The notes under the pieces are model-generated. The model made no database searches. It saw only the letters and a program-made list of their open reading frames with translations, and was not told where the DNA came from. From the NCBI GenBank assembly GCA_046262255.1, contig JBHENB010000005.1, positions 350 to 64,349 on the forward strand: DNA of 64,000 nucleotides. Reading direction: 5' to 3'. Both the position numbers and the translations under genes were made by a program. The stretch is from Chitinophagaceae bacterium (GTDB lineage: Bacteria; Bacteroidota; Bacteroidia; Chitinophagales; Chitinophagaceae). Below are positions 24,008 to 26,833 of this stretch, piece after piece; position 1 is the stretch's first letter; every line of letters starts with the position of its first letter.

Positions 24008-24157
24008 ACTTCCTGCACAAAATAAAAACTTGTAATAGCAATTCAAAACAGTTTATCCGTTTACGGTAATTTCGCCACTGTCTTGTCATGTTGAAGAACA
24101 AAATCATTTTAGAAATAACTATACGATCCTCTGCAAATGATAAGCCGGTTACATAAA

Positions 24158-26833
24158 ATGAATCAACCTAAACGATACTTAATTACAGCCGCATTACCAT
24201 ATGCAAACGGTCAAAAACACATAGGGCATTTAGCCGGTGCATATTTGCCTTCAGATATCTATGTGCGGTACCTGCGGGCACAAAAGAGAGATGTGGTTTT
24301 TATTTGTGGCAGTGATGAACATGGTACCGCCATCCCCATCCAGGCAATGAAAGAAGGCACAACGCCTCAGGCTATCATTGATAAGTACCACTTGCAGATA
24401 AAACAAAATTTTGAAGATCTATTTATTTCATTTGATATATACGACCGCACAAGTAATCCTGTACACCACGATACAGCCCAGGAATTTTTTACTTACCTGA
24501 ATGACAGAGGTGAACTGGACATAAAAGAAACAGAACACTATTTCGATGAACAGGCACAAACATTTTTAGCCGACAGGTATATAAAGGGCACCTGTCCTAA
24601 TTGTGGTTTTAACGGGGCTTTTGGCGATCAATGTGAAAAATGCGGAACATCATTAAGTCCTGATGAATTGATAAATCCTGTAAGTACATTAAGCGGAAAT
24701 AAACCAATAAAAAAAGCTACAAAACACTGGTATCTGCCACTTAACAAACATGAAGAATGGCTTCGCACCTGGATACTTACTGAACATAAGGACTGGAAGA
24801 CCAATGTATTTGGTCAATGCAAAAGCTGGCTGGATACCGGTTTGCAACCCAGAGCGGTTACAAGAGATCTGGACTGGGGAGTGAAGGTACCAAGCCCCCC
24901 CACCCCCCAAAGGGGGGATTTAGCATCCACACAAAGCCAGCTTGCGAAAGAGCACTATAAATATGCAACAGCAGATCCGCTGCAATATTCTTTATTAAAA
25001 GAGTTTGTGAAAACGCATAGAAGTCAACCGACAGAAGCGGAAAGAGTTTTGTGGGAAATGCTCAGAGGGAAAAAACTTGAAGGCTATAAATTCAGACGTC
25101 AACATATAATAGGAACTTTTATCGCAGATTTTTTTTGCTTGTCTAAAAAATTAATTATTGAAGTGGATGGGCTAACTCATCAATTACCTGAAAATAAAAT
25201 AAATGATGAAGAGAGAACTAAATGGTTGAATGAAAACGGCTACGAAGTAATCCGTTTCACAAATAATGAAGTTTTACTTAATACTGAAGGAGTATTAAAT
25301 ACACTTCTGCACAAGCTACAAATATTACCAAATCACAAAACCAATGATGAAGATGCAAAAAGAGAGGTTAGTGCGGATGCTGAATTCCCCCTTCGGGGGG
25401 ACTTAGGGGGGCTGAGCGGAAAGGTCCTCTACGTGTGGTTTGATGCACCAATAGGCTACATCAGTGCAACAAAGCAATGGGCTTTAAATACAGGAAAAGA
25501 CTGGAAATCGTACTGGCTGGATAAAGAAACCAAACTGGTACATTTTGTTGGCAAGGATAATATCGTTTTCCATTGCATCATTTTCCCTGTAATGCTAAAG
25601 TTGCATGGCTACATTCTTCCCGATAACGTTCCTGCAAATGAGTTCATGAATTTAGAAGGTGATAAAATGAGTACCAGCCGAAACTGGAAGCTGGACATGC
25701 AGGATTACATTGATGATTTTGTAAAGAAAGAAAATGGCGGTCCTGCAATGGTGGACGCCTTGCGTTACTATTTAACTACTATATTGCCGGAAACAAAAGA
25801 CAGTGAATTTACCTGGAGAGGGTTTCAGGATGCAGCAAATAGTGAGTTGGTAGCTGTATTTGCCAACTTCGTTAATAGAACATTTGTGTTGATGCACAAA
25901 CTGTGTAAAGGAAAAGTGCCGAAGTTTCATAAGGATAGTGCTGATGAGAAAGACCAGGCATTGATTGAAGAGATCAAAGCATCAAAAACTAAAATAGAAA
26001 ATGCATTAGAACAATACAAATTTCGGGATGCTCTTTTTGGAGTGATAGACCTGGCACGAAGTGGAAACAAATACCTGCAGGAAAAGGAACCGTGGAAAAA
26101 AGCCTCAAGCGATAAGACGCAAGCTACAAGTGAGGAAAATCAAATACTTGTTGACAATTGCCTTCATGTGTGCTTACAGCTTTCTGCTAACCTTGCAATT
26201 TACATAAATCCCTTTCTTCCAAACATCGCAAAGAAAATTTGCCACATGATGAAGGTTGTAGATAAAATGTTGGAGTGGGAAAATGCTGGTAAGCTGAACT
26301 TACTGAGTGTAGGTTATTCTCTGCGGGCACCTGAACTATTATTCAGAAAAATTGAAGATACCGAAGTACAGCATCAAATTGAAAAATTAAAACAAGGATT
26401 AGAAAGATCAAAAATGGAAAAAAAGAACCAACCGACAAATAGCAATGAGCAAACAAATCAAAGTTCTGGAAGCGAGCATGCTCAATCTGCAATCTTAAAT
26501 CTTAAATCTGAAATTGTTTATGATGATTTTGCAAAGCTGGACTTACGCATTGGCACTATAACAGCAGCAGAAAAAGTAAAAAAAGCAGACAAACTCTTAA
26601 AGCTGGAAGTGGATCTTGGTTTTGAAAAAAGAACAATAGTTTCAGGCATAGGGCAGCATTTTCAGCCCGATTCACTCTTGAATAAACAGGTAATACTTGT
26701 AGCTAATCTTGCACCACGAAAAATGAGAGGAATTGAAAGCCAGGGAATGATCCTTACTGCTGAACAGCCCGATGGGAAGCTGATCCTGGTAAGCCCCGAT
26801 GCCATTACAAACAATGGCTCGGAGGTTCGTTAA
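24158..26833 (+). CDS. metG: Methionine--tRNA ligase with in-frame DUF559 endonuclease insertion and C-terminal tRNA-binding domain
   Basis: PYANGQKHIGH (HIGH), Zn knuckles CPNC/CEKC, KMSTS, C-terminal Trbp111-like domain; ~175-codon insert between WGVKVP and GKVLYVWFD. Confidence 0.97.
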   Translation: MNQPKRYLITAALPYANGQKHIGHLAGAYLPSDIYVRYLRAQKRDVVFICGSDEHGTAIPIQAMKEGTTPQAIIDKYHLQIKQNFEDLFISFDIYDRTSNPVHHDTAQEFFTYLNDRGELDIKETEHYFDEQAQTFLADRYIKGTCPNCGFNGAFGDQCEKCGTSLSPDELINPVSTLSGNKPIKKATKHWYLPLNKHEEWLRTWILTEHKDWKTNVFGQCKSWLDTGLQPRAVTRDLDWGVKVPSPPTPQRGDLASTQSQLAKEHYKYATADPLQYSLLKEFVKTHRSQPTEAERVLWEMLRGKKLEGYKFRRQHIIGTFIADFFCLSKKLIIEVDGLTHQLPENKINDEERTKWLNENGYEVIRFTNNEVLLNTEGVLNTLLHKLQILPNHKTNDEDAKREVSADAEFPLRGDLGGLSGKVLYVWFDAPIGYISATKQWALNTGKDWKSYWLDKETKLVHFVGKDNIVFHCIIFPVMLKLHGYILPDNVPANEFMNLEGDKMSTSRNWKLDMQDYIDDFVKKENGGPAMVDALRYYLTTILPETKDSEFTWRGFQDAANSELVAVFANFVNRTFVLMHKLCKGKVPKFHKDSADEKDQALIEEIKASKTKIENALEQYKFRDALFGVIDLARSGNKYLQEKEPWKKASSDKTQATSEENQILVDNCLHVCLQLSANLAIYINPFLPNIAKKICHMMKVVDKMLEWENAGKLNLLSVGYSLRAPELLFRKIEDTEVQHQIEKLKQGLERSKMEKKNQPTNSNEQTNQSSGSEHAQSAILNLKSEIVYDDFAKLDLRIGTITAAEKVKKADKLLKLEVDLGFEKRTIVSGIGQHFQPDSLLNKQVILVANLAPRKMRGIESQGMILTAEQPDGKLILVSPDAITNNGSEVR
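24893..25413 (+). mobile_element. Putative palindrome-bounded element encoding a DUF559/Vsr-like endonuclease domain, in frame with metG
   Basis: TEAERVLWEMLR, FRRQHIIG, IADF, IIEVDG..H, D..RTKWL...GYEVIRF motifs. Ends are AGCCCCCC (24893-24900) and GGGGGGCT (25406-25413), each beside an internal hairpin. Confidence 0.8.
26100..26134 (+). repeat. Heptamer tandem array inside metG
   Basis: AAGCCTC-AAGCGAT-AAGACGC-AAGCTAC-AAGTGAG, period 7, same AAG family as 9372-9399. Confidence 0.6.
26484..26515 (+). repeat. Heptamer tandem array in the metG linker
   Basis: AATCTGC-AATCTTA-AATCTTA-AATCTGA-AATT. Confidence 0.65.

Follow-up and report, generated by a model that had tools for sequence, protein, structure and literature searches.

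How does a gene for a core enzyme of protein synthesis come to encode, in the middle of the enzyme, a nuclease domain that its relatives lack? This question is raised by metG, the gene for methionyl-tRNA synthetase (MetRS), within a 64,000-nt stretch of DNA (the window; positions 350-64,349 of the forward strand of contig JBHENB010000005.1) from a Chitinophagaceae bacterium. The source genome (GCA_046262255.1, labeled G000) was assembled from metagenomic data into 150 contigs and is 93.65% complete. The metG gene carries an in-frame insert that encodes a DUF559 domain between inverted G/C-rich end units, and all metG coordinates given below are window positions. We conclude that this insert is almost certainly one copy of a family of mobile cassettes, a family that is large and is found within many essential genes of Bacteroidota. 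To the complete account, in which the cassette is kept in the protein and is moved by its own nuclease, we assign a probability of about 0.5.

A nuclease domain read in frame with metG

The metG open reading frame (ORF) is intact, with the HIGH and KMSTS motifs both there, and comparison with relatives indicates that the real start is probably the ATG at 24158 (MNQPKRYL). It is the single metG of the assembly, which contains one tRNA-synt_1g MetRS locus. The Pfam tRNA-synt_1g match is split, with residues 14-253 corresponding to model positions 1-239 and the match being picked up again past the insert. An earlier note on this DNA had reported about 175 extra codons with a DUF559/Vsr-like domain between WGVKVP and GKVLYVWFD, and the sequence and Pfam both agree, so that the insert itself is confirmed. 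In the source MetRS 175 residues separate the two motifs, compared with about five (LPDAE) in relatives, which amounts to a net gain of 170 codons (510 nt). The cassette is read in sense and in frame with metG, and its ORF has neither a start nor a stop codon of its own.

The insert matches DUF559 (PF04480) at 117.7 bits over model positions 4-108 of 109, the Pfam cut-off being 20.6 bits. The closest solved structure is the endonuclease-like protein PDB 3HRL, and the homing endonuclease I-Bth0305I (PDB 3R3P) is a weak match (E=0.035). A survey of PD-(D/E)xK proteins places VSR, DUF559 and DUF2726 in one clade, together with the structures 1cw0, 3hrl and 3r3p (PMC3424549). Among 167 embedded DUF559 copies, the core residues T299, E302, W306, R320, R321, H323, D331, E342, D344, G345, H348, D357, R373 and N376 are conserved in at least 96%. 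The acidic/histidine core D...E-x-D-G-x-x-H (D331, E342, D344, G345 and H348, conserved in at least 98% of these copies) is intact in the insert. By homology, then, the insert is a member of the DUF559 / Vsr-like PD-(D/E)xK nuclease family and is predicted to have endonuclease activity. A DUF559 protein of Caulobacter, VsrA, has been found to cause DNA damage in vivo and an SOS response when the cognate (cytosine) methylation is missing (PMC12907096).

For the analysis of selection we used the nearest relative with a metG cassette, a Joint Genome Institute (JGI) metagenome contig (L064), as reference. The nuclease core shares 81% amino acid identity with that of L064, equal to the identity of the MetRS body, and its ratio of nonsynonymous to synonymous divergence (dN/dS) is 0.085 at a dS of 1.1, while the dN/dS of the C-terminal linker is about 1.5. 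In the right end unit the proportion of synonymous differences is 0.185, compared with 0.58-0.81 in the surrounding sequence. The low dN/dS of the nuclease, the high values in the linkers and the scarcity of synonymous changes at the end indicate that the protein is constrained in the nuclease and free in the linkers, and that the end is constrained as nucleotides. The median dN/dS for 237 other pairs of embedded copies was 0.25 (maximum 0.47).

The two ends of the cassette have the same architecture. On the left, A24893 and a G are followed by C7 (24895-24901), A, C6 (24903-24908), AAA and G6 (24912-24917); on the right, C5 (25387-25391) is followed by TTC, G6 (25395-25400), ACTTA, G6 (25406-25411), C and T25413. 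Two C runs and one G run make up each end, mirrored at the opposite end. The earlier note had described an 8-bp terminal inverted repeat and one hairpin per end. The repeat is indeed exact over 8 bp (AGCCCCCC/GGGGGGCT), but each end is a unit of three blocks, not a simple hairpin. A single end did not fold with a better energy than shuffled sequence (z = -0.4 to -1.5), so the evidence for the ends comes from their recurrence and not from thermodynamics. In line with the earlier note, which had seen no obvious target-site duplication, none is clear at metG or at the C1 end unit. The AGC triplet present at both metG junctions was considered as a target-site duplication or as bypass codons and was rejected, as it is not kept in L064.

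AlphaFold2, given an alignment of 35 filled MetRS sequences, predicted a folded synthetase with a predicted local distance difference test score (pLDDT) of mostly 70-95 and a separately folded insert core with alpha/beta elements (pLDDT 50-80). The two linkers flanking this core, residues 243-281 and 401-431, have pLDDT values below 50. We consider it likely that the cassette is translated with metG, that its C and G runs become Pro/Gly-rich flexible linkers, and that the nuclease hangs off MetRS as an extra domain that is not spliced out. The features of the cassette and of the related loci discussed below are listed in Table 1.

Table 1. Coordinates of the metG cassette, of its relatives in the source genome and of the repeat unit near E. 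coli ycjD (metG features in window positions).
Feature	Location	Strand	Remarks
metG (methionine--tRNA ligase) ORF, insert included	24137..26833	+	898 codons, uninterrupted; NCBIfam NF001100, 803.9 bits
Left three-block end unit, AG-C7-A-C6-AAA-G6	24893..24917	+	translated SPPTPQRG
Sub-terminal inverted repeat, left arm, 33 nt	24903..24935	+	85% complementary to right arm
N-terminal linker of cassette	24918..24997	+	predicted disordered
DUF559 / Vsr-like PD-(D/E)xK nuclease domain, residues 288-394	24998..25318	+	Pfam E=2.7e-34; PDB 3HRL E=1e-22
C-terminal linker	25319..25386	+	fast-evolving; 11-codon in-frame indel relative to L064
Sub-terminal inverted repeat, right arm, 33 nt	25368..25400	+	85% complementary to left arm
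Right three-block end unit, C5-TTC-G6-ACTTA-G6-CT	25387..25413	+	translated (F)PLRGDLGGL
Region holding DUF559 copy 2, source genome	C4:34665-35860 (locus L002 49-2532)		in frame inside acetyl-CoA synthetase (Acs)
Region holding DUF559 copy 3, source genome	C64:3-1403 (locus L003)		at LeuRS site also used by a congener
DUF559 copy 4, source genome			fused to start of argB
DUF559 copy 5, source genome			free-standing ORF, 120 codons
Inverted pairs of GCCCCCTGTCCCCC-type units, source genome	C49:13792-14075; C36:21960-22217; C90:1171-1402; C41:13170-13347; C27:5972-6194		
TMECO unit near ycjD, E. coli K-12	locus L227 7206-7240, NC_000913.3 ~1351205-1351239	-	perfect consensus

The metG site is empty in close relatives and has been filled repeatedly

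We surveyed the metG site in 40 relatives, namely 24 congeneric species and 16 members of other families in the order. The two flanks are adjacent, and the site thus empty, in all 40, at both the DNA and the protein level. The alignment of relatives that the earlier note had proposed as a check therefore yields empty alleles instead of an insert inherited vertically by every relative. The 41 MetRS proteins recovered in a search with the insert sequence (described below) all carry the DUF559 cassette at the identical site, and two of them have a second cassette in the anticodon-binding domain.

A tree of 123 MetRS sequences, built after removal of the insert loop, requires at least five changes of the filled state. 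It contains three clades in which every sequence is filled (8, 23 and 5 rows), and the source sequence is nested among empty congeners. The clade of these congeners contains two separate filled rows, the source sequence and P0072, whose cassettes are not each other's relatives. The cassette entered the lineage of the source genome and L064 after its split from the 24 sampled congeners, and the same MetRS site has been occupied independently in other lineages.

The same loop also holds shorter elements. Short inserts are present in 12 of the 123 rows, and most of these are nuclease-less two-unit inserts, with at least three end types represented. Alleles that are filled or carry a two-unit insert all lack the native five-residue loop, the element abutting VP and (G)KVLY. 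This recurrence of the site across MetRS lineages and the nuclease-less derivatives in the loop are, with the three-block nature of the ends, what the earlier note had under-described. Four congeners (G005, G021, G015 and G019; loci L044, L047, L039 and L056) have inserts of 15-22 residues in this loop, and the insert at L044 contains the hairpin CCTCCCaaaacaGGGGAGG. They may be left over from earlier occupancy or may have arisen independently as small insertions.

The cassette lies beside the most conserved part of the enzyme. When paired 15-residue windows were scanned across 69 empty MetRS sequences, the flanks of the metG site ranked first of 673 pairs, and the right-hand flank window (KVLYVWFDAPIGYIS) ranked third of 694 for conservation. 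Six other host sites fall in the top 3-11% for flank conservation, in a test that is biased by being anchored on conserved motifs: the site in methionine synthase (MetH) before the B12-binding DxHxxG stretch, those in CinA and adenine deaminase, those in the isoleucyl- and leucyl-tRNA synthetases (IleRS and LeuRS) before the Thr-rich motifs of the editing domain, and the second MetRS site. Inteins and homing endonuclease genes are known to be placed beside the most conserved motifs in this way. Such placement agrees with copying from allele to allele via conserved homology arms, and also with a safe haven where the cell would not survive imprecise loss, and our data do not distinguish between these.

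A cassette family within essential genes

Five DUF559 copies are present in the source genome, the metG copy and four more (Table 1). The acetyl-CoA synthetase gene on contig C4 has two in-frame inserts, a nuclease-less two-unit element (SPNGEEPNPQ...SSPVGGSLGWLGG) followed by the DUF559 cassette. Nuclease-less units share 32 nt with the left end of this cassette at 100% identity. On contig C64 the part of LeuRS from CYTTRPDT onward is linked to a DUF5606-like ORF by a DUF559 cassette. The N-terminal part of LeuRS is on contig C55 (C55:13642-14151), where the contig end cuts it off, and residues ~170-300 were not found. The junction can be read in two ways: the assembly may have been joined at repeated end units, or leuS may truly be rearranged or split where the cassette lies.

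The end units form a family far beyond chance. Hairpins of the form C5-loop-G5 occur 55 times in the source genome, compared with 4 of the reverse order, and the strict three-block pattern occurs 36 times, compared with once for the reversed control. Defined as G-C5+, spacer, C4+, loop and G4+, three-block end units number 57 in the genome and belong to several sequence subtypes; no conserved target motif was found outside these 57 units. Many lie in long ORFs, where they are read in frame as SPxGG, PPxGGGG and similar peptides, and nuclease-less two-unit elements of ~110-140 bp are in frame in several proteins. The earlier note had advised looking for further DUF559 copies with the same ends, and both these and the nuclease-less units are found in the genome and in relatives.

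Solo units of the GCCCCCTGTCCCCC type, paired in inverted orientation, flank AT-rich intergenic regions of divergent genes (Table 1), and in translation they add N-terminal sequence (..LSSPxGGQGA..) to the products of the adjacent genes. Between the paired units there is no homology, save for a motif of 15-17 nt (AGTGCGACGC). We considered whether paired T3 units represent one family of miniature transposable elements with inverted repeats (MITEs) and rejected this, since their interiors are not homologous; they are independent solo units at gene starts. An extra end unit, CCCCCTTTTAGGGGG-ACA-GGGGGC, lies by a gene end at 2391-2414 of the window.

Beyond this genome, a search with the insert against proteins of 494-1571 amino acids recovered 1,946 matches at E<=1e-10. 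Pfam partners among them include MetRS, MetH, IleRS, LeuRS, adenine deaminase, CinA, urocanase, Acs and RarA. Among genomes, a survey of 185,579 species (one genome each, single-protein query) identified more than 530 stretches that encode relatives. All of the best 80 lie in open frames of at least 280 amino acids, and 77 of these 80 in frames of at least 400. Carriers belong to the Chitinophagales, Sphingobacteriales, Flavobacteriales and Cytophagales, and include the cultured strains Flavobacterium micromati DSM 17659, Winogradskyella sediminis DSM 28134 and Nubsella zeaxanthinifaciens TDMA-5. The MetH of the F. micromati strain contains two cassettes. Cassette-bearing MetRS and HutU of Bacteroidota type were also seen on contigs labeled as a Streptomyces griseus metagenome-assembled genome and as Candidatus Saccharibacteria (loci L165 and L185); these contigs are probably mis-binned rather than evidence of spread to other phyla.

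Many hosts contain two DUF559 cassettes at different sites: P0002 and P0003 (MetRS), P0004-P0018 (MetH) and P0019-P0030 (IleRS and LeuRS). In several double-cassette proteins the two copies are sisters, which suggests spread or conversion within one gene.

Association between the nuclease and the end units

End types cluster on the tree of the nucleases across different host genes, with 16 label changes compared with 45.4 after shuffling. The T3 end type corresponds to a single nuclease clade with 96% support, whose copies are in an M23 peptidase and MetH, and the T2 end type links RibD, an N-terminal fusion and MetH.

We also examined whether end units and DUF559 are found in the same genomes, using 25 genomes of the source genus and a set of 201 genomes from 135 genera, in tests that are uncorrected for phylogeny. 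Within the genus, the presence of at least two end units is associated with that of DUF559 (Fisher p=2e-4). Among the 201 genomes, DUF559 is encoded by 20 of the 21 with at least ten end units, compared with 70 of the remaining 180 (p=4e-7). After subtraction of two ends per cassette, the mean surplus is 3.5 units in genomes with DUF559 and 0.34 in those without (p=7e-5), and 17 of the 19 genomes with a surplus of at least five units encode DUF559.

A similar arrangement is found around DUF559 genes that are not embedded in other genes. Of 12 stand-alone DUF559 ORFs examined in other families, eight to nine lie between inverted repeats that are made of block palindromes and differ in sequence (e.g. 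CACCCC-TAAAT-CCCC-TAAA-GGGG, or CCCTCTCC-ATTT-GGAGAGGG). In E. coli K-12, the sole DUF559 gene is ycjD, and a perfect match to the consensus of the TMECO repeat is located 168 nt downstream of its stop codon on the same strand. TMECO repeats have been described in 23 copies in E. coli with no mobility gene, in a paper that never mentions ycjD (Holder et al. 2015, PMC4666352). A block-palindrome-like sequence overlaps the ycjD stop codon, and a degenerate duplicate of the ycjD 3' end lies between ycjD and the TMECO unit. Taken together, the co-variation, the co-occurrence, the stand-alone genes and the E. coli locus point to a likely functional partnership of the nuclease and the end units.

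Proposed mechanism and alternative explanations

Each cassette consists of two inverted three-block G/C end units, short sub-terminal inverted repeats and a DUF559 ORF without start or stop. In the mechanism that we propose, the cassette, which lies in frame in a short variable loop, would survive there by being co-transcribed and co-translated with metG. Its nuclease would nick or break DNA at the structured end units, or at sites carrying such units, and repair from a cassette-bearing copy would install the cassette at the same site in another allele, whether incoming or resident. Occasional copying into new sites would also take place, the whole being homing-like gene conversion and not transposase chemistry, and derivatives without a nuclease, both two-unit and solo-unit, would depend on action in trans for their movement or formation. 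Whether the cassette's own nuclease drives its mobility is, in our estimate, roughly an even question. The earlier note had offered two accounts. That of a selfish nuclease element persisting as a tolerated in-frame fusion is supported by the empty alleles in 40 of 40 relatives and by the existence of a family with the same ends; that of a nuclease domesticated for MetRS is unlikely, as the same domain occurs in dozens of unrelated enzymes.

Several observations weigh against our reading. The other copies in the source genome are old, with at most 59% amino acid identity to the metG copy. Ongoing mobility was not observed; a metagenome scan, in which no contig exceeded 78% identity, did not find filled and empty alleles within one species, and the metG flanks show no sign of a co-conversion tract. 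The nucleases of different host genes are ~60% identical, which makes them too alike to recognize many different host sequences, and classical sequence-specific homing is therefore unlikely. Many end units are solo and some end types of the source genome have no resident nuclease partner, so the ends may lead an independent existence. Joint transfer of ends and nuclease would by itself also be expected to make them co-occur.

Some of these points lead to an alternative in which mobility or recombination belongs to the end units themselves, which a host process or another enzyme would move or generate, and DUF559 is either trapped cargo or a homing gene that entered pre-existing two-unit elements. 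That end units outnumber DUF559 copies 57 to 5 in the source genome agrees with this explanation, as do the lack of a nuclease partner in that genome for its commonest end type (GCCCCCTGTCCCCC...), the nuclease-less units of several types in the same MetRS loop, and the E. coli TMECO repeats, reported without a mobility gene (PMC4666352). However, genomes rich in end units, whether by total or by surplus, nearly always have DUF559, nuclease clades co-vary with end types across host genes, and stand-alone DUF559 genes, that of E. coli included, adjoin block palindromes of their own. Moreover, no other type of cargo was seen between such ends among the loci examined. We regard this alternative as rather doubtful. 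A domesticated domain, serving the cell in mismatch or very-short-patch-type repair, defense or a stress response and using the housekeeping fusion as a route of expression, seems to us improbable. Purifying selection on the nuclease does equal that on the host gene over a dS above 1, and the cassette is fixed in whole MetRS clades (the three all-filled ones), where a purely selfish homing gene would be expected to decay after fixation; the cellular role of VsrA, linked to cytosine methylation (PMC12907096), points the same way. Against this, the domain is found not only in dozens of unrelated enzymes but in several positions within an enzyme, close relatives carry it in a patchy pattern (metG is empty in all 24 sampled congeners), and it comes with inverted-repeat ends and nuclease-less derivatives. 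A role as a defense-system component was rejected, PADLOC having returned for the cassette nothing beyond a weak 'homing endonuclease' match.

Loss of the insert prior to synthesis or use of the enzyme is a further alternative, whether through RNA excision via the paired inverted ends, translational bypass, or unrecognized protein splicing or cleavage. The ends can pair (the 8-bp terminal and the 33-nt sub-terminal repeats), which would bring the metG flanks together in RNA, and the first residue of the insert is a Ser. On the other hand, the nuclease lacks its own start codon and experiences selection at the amino acid level in the frame of its host, the linker indels are in frame, and the AGC triplets at the junctions are not conserved in L064. 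The earlier note had remarked on the lack of an intein signature, and this is borne out: no Hint or intein family is among the Pfam matches of the whole protein or of the insert, the C-terminal junction (...GDLGGLS|GKV) has no His-Asn and has Gly at +1, and the N-terminal Ser253 is not accompanied by splicing blocks. An intron or other known structured RNA was likewise rejected, the only Rfam match being at chance level (E=0.46, 19 bits compared with a gathering score of 45). The 510 nt to be bypassed would, to our knowledge, be about ten times the longest known bypass gap, that of T4 gene 60, which counts against bypass. Removal in any of these forms is accordingly very improbable. There is, finally, hardly any likelihood that the insert is an assembly artifact or lies in a dead gene of a metagenome-assembled genome. 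The assembly is fragmented into 150 contigs and its LeuRS cassette lies at a suspicious junction on C64, yet the metG ORF is intact over 898 codons with HIGH and KMSTS there, it is the only metG of a 93.65%-complete genome, the independent contig L064 has the same cassette at the same site with coding-type divergence, and the same architecture is present in dozens of independent assemblies.

Our preferred reading, a cassette retained in the protein and moved by its own nuclease, can be extended to a wider proposal, which we advance tentatively and at somewhat less than even odds. DUF559 cassettes with three-block ends would represent an unrecognized class of prokaryotic mobile element, in which a minimal Vsr-like nuclease acts on its own structured ends, and would have a third way, beside introns and inteins, of residing in essential genes, by translation through Pro/Gly-coding ends and persistence in the protein. 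YcjD and the TMECO/PIT/BoxC repeats would be the same partnership, a link that would account for the orphan repeats of triplex type in E. coli and other bacteria.

If confirmed, these findings would mean that a selfish nuclease gene can colonize essential genes without splicing machinery, by means of ends that any frame turns into flexible linkers. The cassettes would be a natural, large-scale source of domain insertions in core enzymes, with thousands of cases in MetRS, MetH, IleRS, LeuRS, CinA and others, and a ready-made map of permissive insertion sites beside catalytic motifs. They would give DUF559, a very common domain of unknown role, a testable function, and could provide the enzyme that the dispersed palindromes of triplex type (TMECO/PIT/BoxC) in E. 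coli have so far lacked. The cultured carriers make direct tests possible.

Comparison with known systems

Our search of the literature on DUF559 in-frame insertions, Bacteroidetes palindromic elements and Vsr-like homing endonucleases found no description of these cassettes, which nevertheless resemble several known systems in part. In-frame MITEs, including the Rickettsia palindromic elements (RPEs), have been reviewed (PMC10969869). RPEs and the cassette are both palindromic repeats in frame in many unrelated housekeeping genes, read as an extra peptide compatible with the fold, and the nuclease-less two-unit derivatives (~110-140 bp) behave just like RPEs. The cassette family has terminal inverted repeats and many dispersed copies, in-frame intragenic ones included, as expected of MITEs and RPEs; small size and the lack of an enzyme are found in the nuclease-less derivatives alone and not in the metG cassette. 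RPEs have no enzyme and no known autonomous partner, whereas the cassette contains a complete nuclease domain under selection, has three-block G/C ends coding for Pro/Gly linkers, and belongs to the phylum Bacteroidota.

The system of repetitive extragenic palindromes (REPs) and REP-associated tyrosine transposases (RAYTs) shares with the cassette the dependence of dispersed short palindromes on one enzyme gene that is itself flanked by the repeats. It differs in its HUH/Y1 transposase, which takes the place of the PD-(D/E)xK nuclease, and in that REPs are extragenic. A REP/RAYT system was rejected for the source genome, in which the best Y1_Tnp matches (19.1 and 17.7 bits) are below the cut-off of 23 bits.

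The ends themselves resemble the TMECO/PIT/BoxC repeats of E. coli, which can form intrastrand triplexes and have been linked to local genetic instability (PMC4666352). Both have a three-block architecture (C-block, loop, G-block, loop, G-block), are often arranged in inverted pairs and are dispersed, and the cassette ends C7-A-C6-AAA-G6 and C5-TTC-G6-ACTTA-G6 have three blocks able to form C-G-G or C-C-G triplets. The TMECO blocks are CCCTCNCCC/GGGNGAGGG and strictly intergenic, whereas the cassette blocks are homopolymeric and many are intragenic, so the cassette ends agree neither with the TMECO consensus (CCCTCNCCC N3-6 GGGNGAGGG N3 GGGNGAGGG) nor with its intergenic location. The likeness is therefore one of architecture and not of shown homology, and the link to ycjD is a single observation.

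As for homing endonucleases, the cassette nuclease belongs to the same PD-(D/E)xK clade as the Vsr-like/EDxHD family, whose member I-Bth0305I has a solved structure (PDB 3R3P; PMC3239194, PMC2677866). In contrast to homing endonuclease genes, which are found within self-splicing introns or inteins or free-standing by their target, the cassette has no intron, intein or split-intein context, and the host protein probably keeps the insert. It has terminal inverted repeats and nuclease-less derivatives, as a transposon would, and near-identical nucleases are found in many target genes, which makes recognition of each host sequence unlikely. Like homing endonuclease genes and inteins, it is located in essential genes right by their most conserved motifs, and the same conserved site is filled sporadically, in scattered lineages whose close relatives have empty alleles.

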